43,156 bases of DNA from a virus. Taxonomy: Duplodnaviria; Heunggongvirae; Uroviricota; Caudoviricetes. Below, one piece after another: positions 2,578-41,787 of the stretch (position 1 is the first letter of the stretch; every line of letters starts with the position of its first letter). Location of the stretch: IMG/VR virus record IMGVR_UViG_2802429223_000002; one strand, written 5' to 3'. The position numbers and the translations under genes were made by a program. The notes under the pieces are model-generated. The model saw nothing but the letters and a program-made list of their open reading frames with translations, searched no databases and was not told the origin of the DNA.

Positions 2578-3447
<870 letters not shown>

Positions 3448-3516: not shown

Positions 3517-4101
3517 TTACACGGTGTCTGGTTCTTCTGGCCACTCAATATCAGGTGCAGTTGATGTATCAACACGGTTCAGCAACACCCGATACTTCTT
3601 CCAGGCTTCCAGCAACGAGGTTTCTTCCTCCGTTGCAATTTCCAGATCTGCAGCATCCTGAAGCGGCGCAATATGCTCACTGGCTACCTGCATCAGGTTG
3701 TTTTTTGTTTCTTCCGCCTCCCGGATCCGGAACAGTTTTTCTGCTTCCGTATCCTTCACCCAGGCTGTGCCGTTCCACTTCTGAAACTCCCCTTCCGGCG
3801 ATAACCAGGTAACATTTTCCGGTAACGGACCGAGTTCAGAAATAAATAACGCGTCGCCGGAAGCCACGTCATAAACCGTTTTACCCCGATGATCTTCAAC
3901 GAGATGCCACGATGACTCATCACTGTTGAAAACAGCCACGAAGCCAGCCGGAATATCTGGCGGTGCAATATCGGTACTGTTTGCAGGCAGACCTGTATGA
4001 GGTGGAATATATGCGTCACCTTCACCAATAAATTCATTAGTTCCGGCCAGCAGATTATAAATTTTTATGGTCCGTGGTTGTTCACTCATTCTGAATGCCA
4101 T
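3517..4101 (-). CDS. tfa: tail fiber assembly protein Tfa
   Basis: 194 aa, near-identical along its length to lambda Tfa as I recall it ([44 protein letters not shown]...). Confidence 0.95.
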
Positions 4102-7061
4102 TATGCAAGCCTCACAATGTAGTTAAATGCGATGTTTTTGACGGTGTTTTCCGCGTTACCAGCAGCGTTAACGGTGATGGTGTGTCCATGTGAGCCAATC
4201 GCAACAGAGTGCGTATGAGCACCAATACCGACAGTATGCGCGTGTGCACCTGCAGATGCTGCTGTGCCGGACAGTGAGTGGCTATGATTACCATCTGTAC
4301 TGGTATTAGCTAACCACCCCGTAGACATACCTACTGAGCCTTGTACCCCCCAGGTATTTTGACCTGAGCTTGTATAACCATATTGATAAGTATCTTTAAA
4401 AACACTGGGGTTAAATCGACGGCCATCTCTATGGCTGTGATTACCAGCTGCATTCGTGCTGCCACTTAAACTATGGGTATGCGCCCCGGTGTTATTCGTG
4501 GATTTAGTGCCGTAATCAAACGACGATGTGGTTTTCGTACCCAAATCCGTACTGGATGCGCTGGCGCTGTGGGTGTGCGATTTAATGCCGTCCTGTTCCT
4601 GAGACAATACGGCACGACCACTGGCGGGTTTGCCCTTAATCGTCCAGCCACGCATATCAGGGATCACGCCTGACGGATAAGCGGCTGCAAGTTTCGGGTA
4701 TGCAGATTTGTCAAAAGTCTGCCCCTGCATCAGGGCATAGCCAGACGGAACGGTATCTGATGGCCACGGGATTGGTGCGCCAGGCGGATAAAACTGCTCT
4801 GATGGCGTATAGAGTGAATAAACTGTACCGTCCGTTAACCCTTCCGGCTTATTAGCAGAATATGCTGGTGACGTATGAATCGTCACGCTGGCATTACTGG
4901 TATAATCCCATTGAATATTTACACCAGTCGCATAATTTCCGATTGCAACGTAAATATCGTAAGTATCACCAGATGTATTGACCCAGGCAAAATTTGTAAA
5001 CCCTGTCGATGTGCGCTGCCATAAAGCACCAGTAATCCCCTTCGGATTACCATTACCTGCACGTAAAACAAGTTCAGATATACCTGCCTGTTGAGGTGAC
5101 CCCACGTTAAATCCAGCGCCACCAATCAACGTAATTGAAACAACAGAACTCGCCTGTGGCATGGTTACCGTTGCTAATTTGAACCAACCAGCACCACCGC
5201 TGAATGACATTGTTGTTGAGTTAAGCGTACCAATATCTTTCGGCGTCAGTGTTATATCCGCTGAAAGCGCCTTACCATTCACCTTACGGGCAGAAGGTAC
5301 CCGACCATTCGCATTGTCATTAGCTGCTTTCACTGCTTTCGGTGTCGCAGCAAGCGTTTCAGATGTGCTGTTGGTTGCACTACTGAGCTGGACAATTCCT
5401 TTTTGTGCTGTCGTAGCGTCCTGTGCGGTGTATTTCCCGTTAGCCAGGTCATACGCGGCCTTAACGGCTTTTGGCGTTGCCGCCTGTGACTCGGAAGTGC
5501 TGTTAGTCGCACTGCTGAGCTGAACTATCCCTTTCTGTGCTGTCGTTGCATCCTGTGCGGTGTATTTCCCGTTAGCCAGGTCATACGCGGCCTTAACGGC
5601 TTTTGGCGTTGCCGCCTGTGACTCGGAAGTGCTGTTGGTCGCACTGCTGAGCTGTACTATCCCCTTTTTCGTCGTGCTCGCATCCTCAAGCGCCACGGCG
5701 GATGCAATATCCTCTGCCCGTTTTGCTGCTGTCTCGGCGCGCGTTGCCGCGGATTCCGCCGTACTTTTGCTCTGTGCTGCCGCTGCCGCACTGCCAGCAG
5801 CCTCTGTCGCCTTCGTGGATGCCGTCGTGGCGCTGCCCCTCGCTGCTGACGCCTGTCTGGTCGCCTCATCTTTTGAAGCAGACGCAGATGATGCCGATGA
5901 CGCCGCCGAACTGGCGGACGATGCGGCAGCCGTTTTTGAGGATTCTGCGCTGGTTTCCGACGCTTTCGCGTTCGTTTCGGATGTCTTCGCTGCGGAAGCA
6001 GACCTCGCTGCTGCGCTGGCCTGTTCAGTGGCTTCGCCAGCCTTCGTTGTGGCTGTTGAAGCGGATGATGCGGCGCTTTCTGCCGATTTTCCGGCGGCGG
6101 TGGCACTGACTGCTGCCTCCTCTGCCTTAATGGACGCCTCACGGGCCGATGATGCAGCTGCTGTCTCAGAGTCTGCCGCAGCTGAGGCGCTCTGTTCCGC
6201 TGCCGTTTCAGAAGACCTGGCATTCGTCTCGGACGTTTTTGCCGCCTTCACGGAATTTCCTGCCGCCGTTGCCGAGGAGGCTGCACTGCTGGCGCTTGTG
6301 GAGGCGTTCGTTTCTGATGATTTTGCCGCCTCTTTGGAGGCCGCCGCATCTCTGGCTGAAGTGGCGGCTTCTGACGCTTTCGTCGTCGCAGTGGATGCAG
6401 AAGTGGCTGCTGATTTTTGTGACGCTGCAGCATTCGTTTCTGACGTTTTCGCCGCACCGGCACTGGTGGCCGCCGCGCTTTTTGAGGACTCTGCAGCGGC
6501 AGCACTTTTTGATGCTTCAGTGGCCTTTGTTGATGCCGTTCCTGCGCTGGAAGACGCCTCCTGAGCCGAAGTCGCGGCCTGTCCGGCTGACGTGCTGGCT
6601 GCACGCGCTGAGCCTGCAGCATCAGTCGCATGGGTTGCCGCCTCACGGGCAGATGTGCCGGCATCACTGGCTGACTTCTTCGCGGCTGCCGTGTTCTGTG
6701 CCACCGCGGACGCGTTACGCGTCACCTCTTCCACCATCAGTTCAAAACGGCGCAGAGCCTCCGGACGGGCATCATCCTCCGTCATGGCACCGAGAAAATC
6801 ATTCAGCGTACCGGGTCGGGAATCTTCATACACGGTGATGGTCCCGGCATGTGACGGCGGGAATCCTTCCACCAACAGAATAACGCTGTACTGACCGTAC
6901 TCAACGTCCATGCTGTAACGCCCGGCTTCATCCGGATTTTCTGAGGCCAGCGTGTTCACCACCACCGTGGTGCTGTTACGTTTTGCTTTCAGCTGGATTG
7001 TGCAGTTCTGTACCGGTTTTCCTGTGCCGTCTTTCAGTACACCTGAAATCTTTACTGCCAT
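4101..7061 (-). CDS. stf: side tail fiber protein Stf with expanded internal repeats
   Basis: N-terminus [32 protein letters not shown] matches lambda Stf; long Ala/Ser-rich region; ATG 7059-7061 preferred over GTG 7067. Confidence 0.9.
5275..5670. repeat. three tandem ~132-bp repeats inside stf (two near-perfect, one degenerate)
   Basis: DNA repeat visible by eye; encodes [44 protein letters not shown] three times. Confidence 0.85.
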
Positions 7062-35995: not shown

Positions 35996-36130
35996 AGCTT
36001 TCTCCTTTTTAGGTAGTTAAGTTGTTACAAGTTGCAAGAATACAACATTAACAACTTTTATCACAACTTTTAGGTGTTGGAAAGCTAAAACATAAAGTTG
36101 TAACCTCATCAAAAAAGAGAGGGATATGTT
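35996..36130. promoter_or_regulatory. OR-like operator/promoter region between cro-like and cI-like genes
   Basis: Repeated half-sites AAGTTGT (36019, 36030, 36104) and ACAACTT (36052, 36065); 9-bp palindrome TTGTTACAA at 36022-36030; tandem ACAACTTTTA at 36051 and 36064. Confidence 0.6.
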
Positions 36131-36817
36131 GTGAAAACACTGGCAGAACGATTAAAGATAGGTAGAGAGAAAGCTGGCATGAGCCAAGCTCAACTAGCTG
36201 AAAAAATTGGACTTTCACAACAATCTGTAGCCAAAATAGAGAATGGCGAAACTCTACAACCGCGCAAAATTAAAGAAATTGCAAAAGTTTTAGGTGTATC
36301 ACAAAAGTGGTTACAACTTGGTATTGAAGACAACGCATCCATACCTGATCTTGTTGTAAAAGAAGCAGAAAGCACCGCATTAGACCCCGATATTTTCGTA
36401 AACATTCCTGTTTTAGATGTCGAGTTATCGGCAGGTAACGGATGTCTGGCTGAAATAGTTGAATCAGCTATTGACTGGTTTCCGTTAAGAAGAGCAGATT
36501 TGAGAAAATCTGGCGTATGTGCATCTAATGCCAAGATCGTAAAAATATGGGGGAACAGTTTATTACCAGTTCTCAATAATGGAGATCTTGTTGCCGTTGA
36601 TATTTCTCAAACCGTTCCTATTCGTGATGGCGATCTTTATGCCGTACGAGATGGTGTATTGCTAAGGGTTAAAATACTTATCAACTTACCTGACGGTGGC
36701 TTGATTCTTAGAAGCTTCAACAAAGATGAGTACCCAGATGAAATACTCACCTTTGAAGATAGACGAGCCAGAATTCATGTTATAGGTAGGGTATTCTGGT
36801 CATCGCGAACTTGGTAA
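36131..36817 (+). CDS. CI-like prophage repressor (HTH_XRE N-terminus, S24 LexA-like peptidase C-terminus)
   Basis: GTG start with AGAGAGGG SD; HTH (MSQAQLAEKIGLSQQSVAKIENGE) and C-terminal S24-like autocleavage domain. Confidence 0.85.
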   Translation: MKTLAERLKIGREKAGMSQAQLAEKIGLSQQSVAKIENGETLQPRKIKEIAKVLGVSQKWLQLGIEDNASIPDLVVKEAESTALDPDIFVNIPVLDVELSAGNGCLAEIVESAIDWFPLRRADLRKSGVCASNAKIVKIWGNSLLPVLNNGDLVAVDISQTVPIRDGDLYAVRDGVLLRVKILINLPDGGLILRSFNKDEYPDEILTFEDRRARIHVIGRVFWSSRTW

Positions 36818-37690
36818 TGCATCGAAAAGCATTTCTTCAGAAATAATTTTAAGTTTTGCACCATTATCATCCCTATAAGATATAGCTTTTTCGATCTTCC
36901 TTCCGTGACTTGAGAATTTCCAATCACGGGAGGAAAGCGTCCCAATTACTAAAAAATCCAACTTTTGAGTAATTCCACTACTGATGTTCCCACCAGCATT
37001 TTTAATCAAATTTTCAACTACGGCTCTCTTTCCTGCAACAAAAGTGCCTGTAAGACAATAGGTTTTACCCTCTAACTCTATCGAAGCCCCTACATCAATA
37101 GGCAGCCTGGTCGCCAAACCATCCACCACCCCACTTTCCAAGTCACATCCTGTGAAGTCTACTAATGCCTTATGTAGAGTTAAACTCTCATCTTCAGTAA
37201 TAACCCCATCTTTAAGAATTTCCTTTACAAGTGCATAAAGTTTTTTTCCTGGGTAGTTGTTCTTCAAAGCTCCATTTTGCTCAAGCCACCAATTAAGATA
37301 TCTTATTTCTTCTTGAGTTAAGTTCCGATCAGCAATTAATCCTTTACATAGTCCATTAAGTAAATGGACATCTACATCCTTGGAGTAAAAATCAATTTCA
37401 GGGATATCAAGAATTTCCCTCTGTATTTGGAGAAGGCTATTTTTAAGGTCATCACGTTCTTCTGATGTGATTATTCCATCCGCAAGAATATCCGACACCC
37501 GTGCTGATAGACTTTTTATAACTCCATTATTGATAATCTGCTTTGCTTCAAGTACCCATGTATCTAAGTAAAGAACCTCCTCTTCACGGACAACTCCATC
37601 TGCAATGATTCCATCAATGATGCTAATCAAGTTAGCAAATAACTTGTCCCGGTTCTGTGTGTAATTAAAAGCGTAAAGCGCGTCTTCCAT
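36800..37690 (-). CDS. tandem-repeat protein with C-terminal BRCT-like domain (rex-slot cargo gene)
   Basis: 296 aa from ATG 37690 (AGGAGG SD); four ~40-aa repeats (IADGVVREEEVLYL / LADGIITSEERDDL / IADRNLTQEEIRYL / LKDGVITEDESLTL) then GKTYCLTGTFVAGKRAVVENLIKNAGGNISSGITQKLDFLVIG, which resembles NAD-ligase BRCT domains; AT-rich. Confidence 0.6.
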   Translation of the reverse strand: MEDALYAFNYTQNRDKLFANLISIIDGIIADGVVREEEVLYLDTWVLEAKQIINNGVIKSLSARVSDILADGIITSEERDDLKNSLLQIQREILDIPEIDFYSKDVDVHLLNGLCKGLIADRNLTQEEIRYLNWWLEQNGALKNNYPGKKLYALVKEILKDGVITEDESLTLHKALVDFTGCDLESGVVDGLATRLPIDVGASIELEGKTYCLTGTFVAGKRAVVENLIKNAGGNISSGITQKLDFLVIGTLSSRDWKFSSHGRKIEKAISYRDDNGAKLKIISEEMLFDALPSSR

Positions 37691-37744
37691 ACAACCTCCT
37701 TTTTTTGATAATCCTTGCACTCCTTGGCTACTCGTTCAAACCAC

Positions 37745-37800
37745 ATAAAGTTGTTGACAACATTCAAAACCACAACTAAATTACAACTTAAAGGTGTTAA
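37745..37800 (+). promoter_or_regulatory. OL/pL-like operator-promoter: -35 TTGACA inside 11-bp palindrome TGTTGACAACA, -10 TAAATT
   Basis: Palindrome 37752-37762; -35 37754-37759; 17-nt spacer; -10 37777-37782; operator half-sites AAGTTGT / ACAACTT shared with the OR region. Confidence 0.55.
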
Positions 37801-37898
37801 AACAACGAACAGGCAGGACGCCCACGAAGTAGCCGCCTAGGGCATATGAAGTCCAGGATGATTCGTTAGCAACAAAAAAGCGCCCTACAGGACGCTTA

Positions 37899-37955: not shown

Positions 37956-38162
37956 ATGCACAAAACAGAACCAAAAATCGTCGCACCCGGATACACAAAT
38001 GAGGAAATTTACGAGTGGATGGCAAAGAAGCTGGCAGCTATAAACCAGCTTCGTGAAGTGCTGTCTTATCGACAGGAAACAATAGACTCCTTAAAAAAAC
38101 TGGATCAGGAAATCACGGTTTTATCACAGGATGTTACTTTAGATATTGTGCAGACAAATTAG
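37956..38162 (+). CDS. hypothetical small protein, first gene of early-left operon
   Basis: 68 aa from ATG 37956 with GAGGAGG SD 5 nt upstream; not Arg-rich, so not recognisably N-like. Confidence 0.5.
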   Translation: MHKTEPKIVAPGYTNEEIYEWMAKKLAAINQLREVLSYRQETIDSLKKLDQEITVLSQDVTLDIVQTN

Positions 38163-38568
38163 GATCCCATTCATTTTCGTCAAAATCATCAAAGTGATGA
38201 ATTTGTGATCTCCAGTCTCGATAATCTAAAAATTTCTGGGCGGTTACGCTTATTTTATCAAGCGTGAGTTCATCCTGAATTGAAAGAAGAAGTTCATCAA
38301 ATTTCATCTCATTAATCTGTTTTGGCATCCAGTGATGCTTCATCAGAATAAGGTGAACCAGAGCTTTTTTCCCATTCAACTGATTATAGGGAGTGCCGAA
38401 TTTCTTCCGGTGCTCATGTAAGACAAGGTCCAGAAGAGTAAGTAATGTTGCCCTTGATTCAACTTTGCTTATTTCGACTGATGACACTACCCCACTGATT
38501 TCAATGCCCCGATACTTTCCAACATTTTCACAGTGGGATTTGTACAGCGTATAGATATTACCGGACAT
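38134..38568 (-). CDS. hypothetical protein, antisense to the early-left operon (moron candidate)
   Basis: 144 aa, AAGGA SD before ATG 38568; AT-rich; own upstream region carries tandem direct repeats. Confidence 0.5.
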   Translation of the reverse strand: MSGNIYTLYKSHCENVGKYRGIEISGVVSSVEISKVESRATLLTLLDLVLHEHRKKFGTPYNQLNGKKALVHLILMKHHWMPKQINEMKFDELLLSIQDELTLDKISVTAQKFLDYRDWRSQIHHFDDFDENEWDPNLSAQYLK

Positions 38569-38584
38569 TTCTTTTCCTTTTGCG

Positions 38585-38635
38585 TTGTTGGGGATAACCA
38601 GATTAACCGAATCCTTGTTGTTGGGGAATAACCAG
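38585..38635. repeat. two direct repeats TTGTTGGGGA(A)TAACCAG, 33 bp apart
   Basis: Copies at 38585-38601 and 38618-38635, 20-70 nt upstream of the minus-strand gene start at 38568. Confidence 0.8.
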
Positions 38636-38854
38636 GTCCACCTCGCCTGATGTGGCTAAAAGCAGGCACATAACAGCTAAGTATTTTCAACCAGAGAGAA
38701 TTCTTAGCGTTGTGGTGAATGCGGCTCAGCGCACGCGGGTTAAGGTTGAGGCTGACAGTCGACCTTCTGTGGATACCCACCCGTCTGGTGTGCAACCTTC
38801 GCCAGGCACCGGGAGGCACCCGGCACCACAACTTTATGCTGTGTGTAGTCCTGG

Positions 38855-38899
38855 CGGTACCAGTTTGTACCCTTGCTTCCGGCTGGTACCGTCCTTTTT
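38855..38899 (+). terminator. terminator-like hairpin and T5 in early-left operon
   Basis: 9-bp stem CGGTACCAG / CTGGTACCG with 19-nt loop followed by TCCTTTTTA. Confidence 0.45.
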
Positions 38900-39020
38900 A
38901 CAAAACAGAGAAGAGCATCACCGGACGACGGGCTCATAACCCAATCCATCCGGGCGGCTACCACCGCAGGTGTTCTTCTCTGTTTTGTGGAGAAACTAAC
39001 CGCCCCTACGGGGGCATTTA
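38900..39020 (+). other. hairpin-dense non-coding stretch (15-bp perfect inverted repeat plus GC tetraloop hairpin); candidate structured RNA or regulatory site
   Basis: ACAAAACAGAGAAGA (38900-38914) pairs perfectly with TCTTCTCTGTTTTGT (38974-38988); GCCCC-TACG-GGGGC hairpin at 39002-39015; overlapping ORFs lack RBS. Confidence 0.4.
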
Positions 39021-39111
39021 TGGAAATGTAATTGACTCAATAATCGCCGGACGGTGAGGGCTTCCTTTTACCCGAATTCAGCGCGGTGCAGCGCATATAC
39101 GTGGAGAACAA

Positions 39112-39649
39112 AATGTCATTTATTAAAACTTTTTCCGGGAAGCATTTTTATTATGACAGGATAAATAAAGACGACATCGTTATTAACGATATCGCGGTTT
39201 CCCTTTCAAATATCTGTCGCTTTGCAGGACATCTTTCACACTTCTACAGTGTCGCCCAACATGCGGTGCTTTGCAGCCAGCTGGTGCCGCAGGAATTTGC
39301 TTTTGAAGCTTTAATGCATGATGCAACAGAAGCATATTGCCAGGACATCCCCGCACCACTGAAACGACTTCTTCCTGACTATAAACGGATGGAAGAAAAA
39401 ATAGACGCCGTAATCCGTGAGAAATACGGGTTACCTCCTGTTATGAGCACGCCAGTGAAATATGCCGATCTCATTATGCTGGCAACCGAACGCCGCGATC
39501 TCGGGCTTGATGATGGCTCTTTCTGGCCTGTACTGGAAGGTATCCCGGAAACAGAGATGTTCAAAGTGATTCCACAGGCACCGGGCCATGCCTACGGGAT
39601 GTTTATGGAACGTTTTAACGAGTTATCGGAGTTACGCAAATGCGCATGA
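39112..39649 (+). CDS. HD-domain phosphohydrolase
   Basis: H...HD metal-binding pattern (HLSHFYSVAQHAVLCSQLV ... ALMHDATEAY); ATG 39112 with GGAGA SD. Confidence 0.7.
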
Positions 39650-41711: not shown

Positions 41712-41787
41712 TGGTGCCGATAATAGGAGTCGAACCTACGACCTTCGCATTACGAATGCGCTGCTCTACCAACTGAGCTATATCGGC
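41712..41787 (-). tRNA. thrW: tRNA-Thr (anticodon CGU)
   Basis: Reverse complement reads GCCGATATAGCTCAGTTGGTAGAGCAGCGCATTCGTAATGCGAAGGTCGTAGGTTCGACTCCTATTATCGGCACCA: cloverleaf with CGT anticodon and 3' CCA; matches E. coli thrW as recalled. Confidence 0.95.

Follow-up and report, generated by a model that had tools for sequence, protein, structure and literature searches.

The 5'-UTR of E. coli thrS contains an operator that mimics an anticodon arm and is bound by ThrRS, and in phage lambda both the PL leader and the sib site carry RNase III hairpins. The put RNAs of HK022, an N-less lambdoid phage, are cis-acting antiterminators of ∼70 nt with two stems, which lie right after the promoter and upstream of terminators (PMC9378689). 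Described copies of STnc100 follow closely on the stx2 operon, and PasD is found in the neighbourhood of Q, adjoining holin/lysozyme (Zhu, Shabalina & Storz, bioRxiv 2026, doi 10.64898/2026.05.13.724894); expression of STnc100 is known for the canonical copies in EDL933 only (PMC5331693). Here we analyse a hairpin-rich stretch (38850-39020) of a 43,156-nt DNA sequence, which we refer to as the window and in which the leader elements located below are on the + strand. An earlier note on this stretch had listed three hairpins and offered a tL-type terminator cluster, a processing site or a small structured RNA as plausible roles.

The window is a lambdoid prophage of the SfV/SfII/ST64B/e14 type, with the early-left gene order cI, PL, leader, yfdR, xis, int, and no N-like antiterminator was found between PL and int. 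A putative PL-like early-left promoter, recognised from its sequence, lies at 37754-37782 (−35 TTGACA at 37754-37759, 17-nt spacer, −10 TAAATT at 37777-37782), inside operator-like repeats ∼1.1 kb upstream of the hairpins. The operator-like half-site ACAACTTT occurs seven times in the window against 1.7 expected, clustering in the cI-cro region (36051-36101), at 37747-37754 and at 38828-38835. The same layout, from cI terminator to OL/PL, is seen in SfII, mEp460, ST64B and the locus L065; in L065 the STnc100-like domain described below begins ∼10 nt after the PL promoter, and the flanking operator repeats match those of cI-cro. Comparing the region with the rest of the window by blastn returned only its own inverted repeat and an 11-nt operator-like word. 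Because neither scan nor eye found a sigma-70 promoter before the STnc100-like domain (38679) or before the motif within hairpin 2, we attribute the transcript over the stretch to PL, ∼1.1 kb upstream. Judged by gene order and promoter position, the hairpin-rich stretch is the distal part of a long, presumptively untranslated early-left (PL) operon leader. Of 146 related loci, 128 have an upstream cI-like gene in the same orientation, and the first gene downstream is most often YfdP (87 loci), with XisE in 13 and YfdR in 12.

The conserved module of this leader opens, at 38638-38678, with a hairpin, CCACC..GUGG (38638-38655), followed by CUAAAAGCAGGCACAUAACAG. Homology with SfII, SfV, e14, phiES15 and LLS starts at 38638, the Cronobacter phage phiES15 being 97% identical over 38 nt at this point. 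Next comes an STnc100-like domain (38679-38901), with a closing stem GUUGUGGUG/CACCACAAC and a conserved CACCGGGAGGCACCCGGCACCA, whose 3' end is hairpin 1. In a 1-kb search the domain matched Rfam RF02076 (STnc100) over its full length (model positions 1-206; 41.9 bits, E = 1.7e-7), with UGGUGAAU and CACCGGGAGGCACCCGGCACCA conserved and the terminator aligned at 38853-38899; the score falls short of the gathering score of 47 bits, and the domain is absent from a whole-window gathering scan. Matches of similar strength were obtained for phiES15 (40.6 bits) and ST64B (35.1 bits). The likeness to STnc100/PasD (RF02076; doi 10.64898/2026.05.13.724894) extends to the alignment of hairpin 1 and the preceding 170 nt over the entire model, to the closing strands GGUGAAU/CACCGGGAGGCACCCGGCACCA, to the terminator and to carriage by prophages, whereas the sub-threshold score, different interior hairpins and location in a PL leader set the window domain apart. 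Moreover, the STnc100 family leaves out most of what we describe, namely 38900-39015.

Hairpin 1 (38853-38899) had been described as a 9-bp stem with a 19-nt loop and TTTTT. The hairpin is present, but it is larger, with 13 bp (38853-38865/38881-38893, three of them G.U), a 15-nt loop, and a C before UUUUU (38895-38899). By anatomy, a G+C-rich hairpin followed by a U-tract, it is a predicted intrinsic terminator that closes the STnc100-like leader domain, and it aligns with the terminator of the STnc100 model. Its 15-nt loop is atypically large, and a simple terminator scan missed it because the loop limit of that scan was 8 nt. A run of at least four T immediately precedes the next helix in 144 of the 146 related loci. 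Two other readings of this segment were rejected: a DicF match over hairpin 1 (Rfam, 15.7 bits, E = 1.9) was judged to be noise, and an antiterminator pairing of CGCCAGG (38800-38806) with CCUGGCG (38850-38856) can form but is not kept in mEp460-type leaders.

The centre of the stretch is hairpin 2 (38900-38988). The perfect 15-bp inverted repeat enclosing 59 nt that had been noticed here is exactly as described (ACAAAACAGAGAAGA at 38900-38914, TCTTCTCTGTTTTGT at 38974-38988), and G.U pairs extend the helix to 20 bp (P1, 38900-38919/38969-38988), or to 25 bp with pairing of the U-tract to GGAGA. Inside it are two further helices, P2 (38921-38925/38949-38953, 38927-38928/38945-38946 and 38930-38932/38940-38942) and P3 (38954-38957/38964-38967), giving a three-way junction. 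The folding energy of the + strand over 38850-39020 is far beyond that of shuffled controls (−83.7 kcal/mol, where 200 dinucleotide shuffles gave −50.9 ± 4.1; z = −7.98, 0/200). Over 69 distinct variants, the paired fraction of cells is 95.4% and drops to 40-49% once the partners are slid; double changes occur at 11 pairs, and the covariation score of 0.185 (0.099 in shuffles) was attained by none of 500 shuffled controls. Pairing is thus kept through compensatory change. Our conclusion from this comparison of variants is that hairpin 2 is a conserved, covarying predicted RNA structure, of the + strand only, which is the small structured RNA among the roles first proposed. Up to E = 10, Rfam 15 has no family for 38900-39015 (the 18 bits of a miRNA model and the 16 bits of the hairpin ribozyme do not rise above noise), so that an Rfam check is positive, below threshold, for hairpin 1 and its domain and negative for the remainder.

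Could the paired positions instead reflect a site in DNA (a cruciform, a protein-binding palindrome or a recombination linker) or an RNA of the − strand? A perfect 15-bp inverted repeat would suit such a site, the − strand folds well too (−75.7 over 38850-39020, z = −5.17), mosaic boundaries lie at 38852 and at about 39005-39013, and the upstream gene on the − strand needs a promoter somewhere in 38569-38700. However, 5-62 of the 69 variants have G.U on the + strand at pairs 23/133, 36/120, 39/117, 37/119 and 21/135, where a cruciform or the opposite strand would present A.C mismatches; the covariance model prefers the + strand (130.2 bits, against 41.5 bits for the − strand), and P3 varies in length as an RNA hairpin does. 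We regard this explanation as highly improbable.

Even less credible, to the point of being negligible, is a small protein gene. A 112-aa ORF (38719-39057) overlaps the stretch and is annotated in RefSeq and GenBank records, as 'YmfH' in K-12 e14 and as 'hypothetical protein' elsewhere. Against a coding function, the element ranges from 112 to 139 nt among homologues and falls in all mod-3 classes, the common variant GGGTGACGGG introduces a TGA in the frame of the ORF, the changes that occur are compensatory for RNA pairing, neither Pfam nor PHROG has a match for the 112-aa product, and the copy in W12-1, which does not differ from the window in its DNA, is a frameshifted pseudogene in RefSeq. 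Since the lengths of hairpin 2 span all three frame classes, we consider the overlapping ORFs, K-12 ymfH among them, to be artefacts, as the earlier note had proposed. The stretch is at present annotated as nothing or as spurious proteins, and a structured-RNA reading removes false genes such as ymfH, mEp460_036/037 and similar.

The sequences that follow the hairpins bear on the proposed cluster of three tL-type terminators. Hairpin 1 fits that proposal by its anatomy, as the 3' end of an STnc100-like domain, and late leaders related by the motif carry two consecutive terminators ahead of it. The other two hairpins do not fit: neither ends in a U-tract, P1 running into GGAGAAAC and hairpin 3 into AUUUAUGG, and conservation in hairpin 2 is higher in the interior than in the stem, the opposite of what is seen in terminators. 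A cluster of three is therefore very unlikely, and only its first member stands. The tract GGAGAAAC (38989-38996), directly after P1, resembles a Shine-Dalgarno sequence and is conserved; it is present in PL-type variants and also in loci that were gathered without requiring it. The window offers no suitably spaced start codon for it, and no alternative pairing of the motif with the ribosome-binding site was found. Kissing of the CUCAUAA loop with downstream AUG contexts, or with the (G/U)UGCAG loop of the third hairpin, was rejected, the complementarity not being consistent across variants.

Hairpin 2 belongs to a previously undescribed and widely distributed phage RNA motif. Its core is an invariant 21 nt, GAC-GGG-NUCAUAA-CCC-AAUCC, at the end of one arm, with surrounding helices that vary and covary; distant members were collected by anchoring on this core, so that its invariance among them is partly circular. 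The same core within unrelated but still pairing helices was found in late-operon leaders, in gut-metagenome phages and in an Acidobacteria phage. In late leaders of Raoultella, Pantoea and Klebsiella-like phages, the motif lies between a Q-like gene and holin/endolysin, and at two loci (L310 and L317) a canonical STnc100 (84-86 bits) lies ∼240 nt upstream on the same strand, so that STnc100 precedes the new motif in late leaders too. The gut-metagenome phages carry it between cI and an exonuclease/RecT pair, and in the Acidobacteria phage the element ends 3 nt before a Shine-Dalgarno sequence. All classes fold to one architecture, with a P1 of only 5 bp in the late type. The outer P2 helix is 84% paired across classes, against 23-55% when slid, with up to six pair types per position. 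In early-left operons and in Q-dependent late operons, the motif always occupies the sense strand of the leader, behind the terminator(s), with 3-130 nt separating it from the first ribosome-binding site downstream. STnc100/PasD members can thereby be placed in an architecture of promoter, STnc100-type domain, terminator(s), new motif and first gene, in early-left and late operons alike.

The stretch itself is carried by 2812 of 5426 complete E. coli genomes (more than half), by Shigella serotype-converting phages, Salmonella ST64B, Stx2a/Stx2c phages and K-12 e14. Shigella and Salmonella are the hosts of SfII/SfV and ST64B. A degenerate genome scan returned many chance matches (∼70 expected for 17 specified bases in 596 Gb), and a locus was retained only if its flanking helices or the covariance model bore it out; two Saccharibacteria matches (L203 and L289) have a 9-bp flanking helix but lie within a 52-aa ORF, and were left uncounted as ambiguous. 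No named phage with a late-type motif was found in the phage collection, no second copy in the window's own late region and no Rfam match among the distant members. Literature searches on the overlapping ORFs, tRNA mimics, VapC and the core sequence returned nothing describing the motif.

The comparison of classes also bears on a processing or stability module that would owe nothing to mimicry, with an RNase E site in the unpaired AU-rich segment that separates hairpin 1 from P1, an RNase III site in P1, or both. Cleavage would free the mRNA of the STnc100-like RNA, the mRNA retaining a protective 5' stem, and the core would be a tertiary-structure or protein-binding motif with a coincidental resemblance to a tRNA. 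A near-perfect duplex of 20-25 bp directly after a U-tract is what such a module might look like, and the lambda PL RNase III hairpins (the N leader and sib) are likewise long, near-perfect duplexes in an early-left transcript. Unlike those hairpins, however, the motif does not keep its long duplex in other classes and conserves an inner hairpin instead. The late-type P1, at 5 bp, is too short for RNase III, and many members outside the PL type have no neighbouring U-tract. Processing thus cannot be the general function, given that related versions have only a 5-bp outer helix; the helices change freely across classes while the 21-nt core is kept, which points to selection on the core sequence rather than the duplex. 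We consider a processing module possible but unlikely.

The tip of the conserved arm, CGGG-CUCAUAA-CCC (38929-38942; 7-nt loop 38933-38939), is identical to nt 29-42 of E. coli tRNA-fMet, that is, to its distal anticodon stem and loop (14 nt exact, E = 2.9e-4 within 1.3 kb). The earlier note mentions neither this identity nor the leader setting, with its PL promoter ∼1.1 kb upstream. The reference tRNA-fMet sequence is present at 100% identity in all 5426 E. coli genomes, at a median of four copies, annotated as tRNA-Met. Three consecutive G-C pairs close a 7-nt loop of the form N-U-CAU-A-A; the GGG/CCC pairs are invariant (69/69 and 38/38 sequences), and searches that left the loop free recovered CUCAUAA, UUCAUAA, GUCAUAA and CUCAUUA, with UUAAUAA of the defective K-12 e14 as the sole exception. 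At the scale of the whole 43-kb window, matching some tRNA over 14 nt is nothing unusual, a point in favour of coincidence and of the processing module, and tRNA-fMet alone was matched in 1/200 shuffles; the argument for mimicry is that the match coincides with the most conserved hairpin. The likeness is limited to the loop and the distal 3 bp of a 5-bp anticodon stem. ARAGORN finds no cloverleaf at the stretch, the only tRNA reported being tRNA-Thr at 41712-41787, and the Rfam tRNA model has no match in 38300-39300 at E up to 10. An attP remnant of a phage integrating at tRNA-Met was rejected: the prophage sits at tRNA-Thr, the identity ends at 14 nt and the 3' half of the tRNA is absent.

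The most likely function, as we read these sequences, would be that of a cis-acting 5'-UTR element, present on read-through transcripts only, that engages a recogniser of the initiator-tRNA anticodon arm. Hairpin 1 would stop un-modified transcription and yield an STnc100-like short RNA, and we infer from this that only transcripts that read through or are antiterminated include the motif, i.e. those of lytic development. On such transcripts the motif may act in cis as a 5'-UTR element, its copied anticodon arm engaging a component that recognises this arm, with the 30S P site/IF3 as the leading candidate. Engagement could set translation initiation of the first cistron, or load ribosomes such that the untranslated leader is protected. 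The first start codon lies 3 to about 130 nt away and the genes downstream are unrelated, which would suit a general factor without singling one out. We are highly confident of the leader anatomy and the motif family, and only tentative about a cis-acting 5'-UTR mechanism at the 30S P site/IF3 specifically; anatomy, family and specific mechanism taken together we rate at somewhat below an even chance. If P-site docking were correct, it would amount to a bacterial IRES-like or anti-initiation device on the first gene of antiterminated operons (holin, xis/int).

A trans-acting decoy would make different use of the same tip. The motif, freed from abundant early and late lytic transcripts, would sequester a host anticodon nuclease of the VapC/MvpT type, or replace tRNA-fMet as its substrate. 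The early-left and late operons are the most strongly transcribed in lambdoid lytic growth, the motif is at the 5' end of both and appears to be made only after read-through, the long P1 duplex of the PL type could permit excision by RNase III, and the tip is identical to the substrate region of the nuclease, A38-C39 included. According to the account in PMC10264068, which cites Winther & Gerdes 2011 (PMC3088637), VapC/MvpT of Shigella and Salmonella cleaves tRNA-fMet between A38 and C39. Conflict between phages and anticodon nucleases is on record, and phages as a rule avoid a tRNA-fMet gene of their own (PMC10264068); we found no paper proposing such a tRNA-fMet decoy. A decoy, however, needs no fixed sense-strand position just upstream of the first ribosome-binding site, and only 3 of the 5 anticodon-stem bp are copied. 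We therefore think a decoy improbable. That the motif is a natural mimic of the initiator-tRNA anticodon arm in temperate phages of several bacterial phyla, through either P-site docking or nuclease decoying, is a possibility we hold doubtfully; if either is true, it would define a new class of phage RNA, one directed at the translation-initiation machinery of the host. Mimicry could explain the control of excision, recombination and lysis genes in N-less lambdoid phages, or a countering of tRNA-fMet-cleaving toxins, and the 21-nt core, being sharply defined and mutable, gives a biochemical hypothesis of initiator-tRNA mimicry.

The proposed cis-acting element resembles the thrS operator in being a 5'-UTR hairpin near a ribosome-binding site, modelled on the anticodon stem-loop of one particular tRNA. 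It differs in copying the initiator tRNA (three stem pairs and the loop) and in lying before unrelated genes (yfdP, yfdR, xis, holin, exonuclease) rather than a cognate synthetase. With HK022 put it shares an N-less lambdoid context, a structured PL-leader RNA and terminators that need read-through, but the motif is downstream of the terminator and forms a three-way junction, unlike put. Compared by eye with the HK022 putL region, the motif shows no convincing similarity, and its covariance model has no match in the HK022 loci; short words of putL/putR are shared with the PL-proximal part of the leader only. This conserved PL-proximal structure (37804-37867) has two hairpins inside a closing stem AACGAAC/GAUUCGUU, is common to SfII and ST64B although their operators differ (different immunity), and has 16 pairs, three with compensatory changes (RNAalifold, six sequences). 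It may be a better analogue of put than the motif is.

The last hairpin of the stretch, hairpin 3 (39002-39015), is as first described a tetraloop hairpin, GCCCC-UACG-GGGGC. Its C(UACG)G tetraloop is of the UNCG type and stable, and it sits at a mosaic (recombination) junction: in mEp460 and Stx2a_1447 its flanks are ∼1.3 kb apart with yfdP-yfdQ between them, and the homology blocks overlap at 39002-39013. Downstream, a further hairpin, GCGC-GGUGCA-GCGC, is followed by a GGAG ribosome-binding site (39086-39112 together) and by the ATG, at 39113, of the yfdR-like HD-domain gene, which matches phrog_318, deoxyribonucleoside 5'-monophosphate phosphatase (E = 8e-109).

The prophage is lambdoid, with tRNA-Thr as its integration site. 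It carries a cI-type repressor gene (HTH_3 + Peptidase_S24, 36131-36817), a minus-strand gene for a BRCT-domain protein (phrog_3989, 36800-37720) and a consensus-like promoter that resembles the early-left promoter PL (TTGACA 37754-37759, TAAATT 37777-37782, plus strand), surrounded by operator-like repeats that are also found between cI and cro. There follow a minus-strand terminator-like hairpin with T6 (about 37874-37897), a 68-aa ORF (phrog_1744, 37956-38162, plus strand) whose ribosome-binding site is strong, a convergent 144-aa 'ECs1072-family' gene (phrog_5286, 38134-38568, minus strand), 540 nt without a credible gene and a yfdR-like HD-domain phosphatase (39113-39649), beyond which lie, in order, DUF551, a further protein, an excisionase and a P22-like integrase. 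The order cI, cI terminator, OL/PL, long non-coding leader, first leftward-operon gene is shared with SfII, mEp460, Stx2a_1447, ST64B, LLS, phiES15, K-12 e14 and the metagenomic phage L065, and in L065 the operator repeats either side of PL match the OR repeats. Given this shared order and the operator match, sequence comparison places the hairpin-rich stretch 38850-39020 in the early-left operon leader. PL is the presumed promoter of the leader, a scan having found no other on the plus strand. Pfam and PHROG searches found no N-like protein between PL and int. A transcript from PL would be antisense to the 144-aa gene, and the promoter of that gene must fall inside the conserved leader module (38569-38700). 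Just 5' of the conserved leader module is a direct repeat, GTTGTTGGGGATAACCAG / GTTGTTGGGGAATAACCAG (38584-38601 and 38617-38635), which could be a protein-binding site; BLAST finds the 5' piece 38600-38676 in Klebsiella phages also.

An earlier note had described three hairpins in 38850-39020, and proposed a terminator cluster, a processing site or a small structured RNA. The plus strand does fold far better than its shuffles (-83.7 versus -50.9 +/- 4.1 kcal/mol, z = -7.98), the minus strand being less stable at -75.7. Hairpin 1, the first of the three, is where the note put it but its size was underestimated: 13 bp (38853-38865 / 38881-38893) close a 15-nt loop, and C and U5 (38895-38899) come next. 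When 38300-39300 was scanned with Rfam, the one meaningful match was to STnc100 (RF02076) at 38679-38901 on the plus strand (E = 1.7e-7), which at 41.9 bits is below the family's gathering score of 47. The match is full length, with hairpin 1 aligned to the family's terminator. Since the curated threshold is not reached, we read hairpin 1 as the predicted terminator of a leader domain that is STnc100-like but divergent, grouped as a relative with STnc100 and PasD rather than filed as a family member. Both of these are prophage sRNAs; described STnc100 copies lie just downstream of the stx2 operon, and PasD, near the Q gene, adjoins the holin/lysozyme genes (doi 10.64898/2026.05.13.724894). Similar sub-threshold matches occupy the equal leader position in phiES15, directly before kil, and in ST64B.

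Hairpin 2 (38900-38988) has the perfect 15-bp inverted repeat that had been noted (38900-38914 / 38974-38988), with exactly 59 nt enclosed. The helix reaches 20-25 bp when G.U pairs are counted, and the interior forms two more helices, so that the whole is a three-way junction of P1 (outer), P2 and P3. The region is mosaic by BLAST: 38852-39013 travels independently in Stx2a/Stx2c phages, mEp460 and others, and is present in 2812 of the 5426 complete E. coli genomes. A first alignment gave a long stem with compensatory changes around an interior that hardly varies. Scanning IMG/VR by pattern then yielded 146 loci with 69 distinct variants, and in a MAFFT alignment of these 95.4% of cells in P1/P2/P3 are paired, compared with 40-49% for slid partners. 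Eleven pairs show double changes (for example C-G 35 / A-U 29, and G-C 46 / C-G 22), and the covariation score is above all 500 shuffles. Compensatory change has thus kept the paired positions across homologous prophages, and of the note's proposals the small structured RNA is the one borne out here: hairpin 2 is a conserved, covarying RNA, with no matching family in Rfam 15. Frequent G.U pairs, together with a covariance-model score of 130.2 bits on the plus strand versus 41.5 on the minus, show that the selected structure is plus-strand RNA, and a DNA-level site is largely excluded. So, too, is a terminator cluster: hairpin 1 is terminator-like, but hairpins 2 and 3 lack a U-tract.

A protein-coding gene is a further reading that we largely exclude. 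With P3 ranging between 14 and about 40 nt, element lengths are spread over all three frame classes; a common hairpin 2 variant has TGA in the frame of a 112-aa ORF, and that ORF has no relatives in Pfam or PHROG. For these reasons the ORFs annotated here, among them K-12 ymfH, the minus-strand CDSs of mEp460 and various 'hypothetical proteins', are probably spurious, in agreement with the note's view of them as artefacts. Such genes overlap the structured leader RNA on either strand (in locus coordinates, ymfH 2862-3173, mEp460_037/036 3560-3928 and 3970-4113, SfII_35 5083-5421).

The most conserved part of hairpin 2 is the tip of P2, GAC-GGG-CUCAUAA-CCC-AAUCC (38927-38947). Within it, 38929-38942 (CGGGCUCAUAACCC) matches nt 29-42 of E. 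coli tRNA-fMet without a mismatch, the tRNA sequence having been verified across all 5426 E. coli genomes. The shared part is the whole anticodon loop and the anticodon stem's distal three G-C pairs, which are the hallmark of initiator tRNAs. With the loop left free in the scan, true homologues vary at position 32 only (C/U/G); A37U is found in ST64B-type variants, and the CAU anticodon is lost solely in the defective K-12 e14 prophage (loop UUAAUAA). A chance 14-mer match to tRNA-fMet arises in about 0.5-2% of shuffled 43-kb windows, so by itself the match is weak evidence; it carries weight because it coincides with the invariant hairpin. TRNA finders detected no further tRNA-like features.

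By genome scan followed by covariance model, full members of the motif occur in Enterobacterales only (Escherichia, Citrobacter, Enterobacter, Kosakonia, Leclercia, Trabulsiella, Buttiauxella, Mixta, Phytobacter, Pseudescherichia and Pseudocitrobacter). The same search also turned up divergent versions that keep the 21-nt core but have different helices, and scans anchored on this core, with the PL-type flank excluded, then yielded more classes. One class, from Raoultella, Klebsiella-like and Pantoea phages, lies in late-operon leaders, where a Q-like gene is followed by canonical STnc100 (84-86 bits in L310 and L317), then by one or two terminators, the motif and the holin ribosome-binding site. 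In human-gut metagenome phages the motif has a cI/HicAB block on one side and an exonuclease/RecT pair on the other, and in an Acidobacteria bog phage it stops 3 nt 5' of a Shine-Dalgarno sequence. One architecture is predicted for all classes: the outer P2 helix has up to six pair types per position and is 84% paired, versus 23-55% when slid, while the core and its GGG/CCC pairs are constant in this collection, which, being anchored on the core, speaks for helix covariation around the core and not for absence of core variation. Matches in two Saccharibacteria MAGs (L203, 462-482 in locus coordinates, and L289), with the core and a 9-bp flanking helix, were set aside because they lie inside a 52-aa ORF; this ORF precedes aspS and is flanked by a consensus promoter and a terminator, and the locus may encode either a small protein or an RNA. 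In the late-type locus L320, the Q-like gene and the motif are separated by clustered tRNA genes (Met-CAU, an odd one, Thr and Gly; 4635-4943).

The order terminator-like hairpin, conserved sense-strand motif, first cistron is shared by two kinds of phage operons that depend on antitermination. The motif would then be made, and act, on read-through or antiterminated transcripts only. Our favoured reading, held tentatively, is that it may serve as a cis-acting 5'-UTR element through recognition of its initiator-like anticodon arm, the 30S P site/IF3 being the most plausible partner. We favour it because the motif has a fixed orientation and a fixed position relative to the first ribosome-binding site, precedes unrelated genes, and copies an initiator anticodon-arm sequence that is conserved across bacteria. 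That hairpin 2 is instead a processing or stability module is a doubtful alternative: it accounts for the long duplex of PL-type members, but leaves unexplained both the conserved core and a P1 of 5 bp in late-type members. An attractive but unlikely possibility is that the motif is a decoy for tRNA-fMet-specific anticodon nucleases, such as VapC/MvpT of Shigella and Salmonella, which accounts for the fixed position less well than the cis-acting role does. The motif is alike in kind to the thrS operator, a tRNA-anticodon-arm mimic in an mRNA leader, but copies another tRNA, is phage-borne and has no cognate synthetase gene tied to it. Literature searches turned up no account of it, and it would represent a new class of phage-host interaction if the mimicry is functional.

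Hairpin 3 (39002-39015) is the C(UACG)G tetraloop hairpin already described. In mEp460 and Stx2a_1447, yfdP-yfdQ separates sequence up to 39013 from sequence 39002 onward; this prophage therefore has a deletion or recombination junction at hairpin 3. Most variants have an equivalent third hairpin with a (G/U)UGCAG loop ahead of the yfdP ribosome-binding site, and we read hairpin 3 as a putative intercistronic or linker hairpin, not a terminator. Short G+C hairpins with this type of loop are found again in both early operons, 5-15 nt ahead of ribosome-binding sites (39086-39099, plus strand, and 32696-32681, minus strand), and could be intercistronic regulatory or linker hairpins.

Directly downstream of the PL-like promoter is another conserved structured element (37804-37867, plus strand), with a closing stem AACGAAC/GAUUCGUU around two hairpins and three compensatory pairs among six sequences. 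It is common to phages with different operators (SfII, ST64B and metagenomic loci). Because it shares the position of HK022 putL, likewise in an N-less phage, it is a candidate cis-acting antiterminator RNA by analogy, although sequence likeness to putL is limited to short words. In many related leaders (L092, L099, L127 and ST64B, 2735-2890 in the last), the PL-proximal element and the terminator have between them an additional conserved domain of ~150 nt, which CUUCGGGAGGGG...CCCCGCCCGAAG closes; these leaders comprise 350-1100 nt of modular structured RNA. In related phages two known families, C4 antisense RNA and isrK, match side by side on the minus strand within the rightward operon's antirepressor region (in locus coordinates, mEp460 1323-1511, Stx2a_1447 2268-2456, ST64B 409-597). 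At the tail-fibre end of the prophage, a full-length IS009 RNA (RF02111, 225.9 bits) lies at 3560-3758 on the minus strand.
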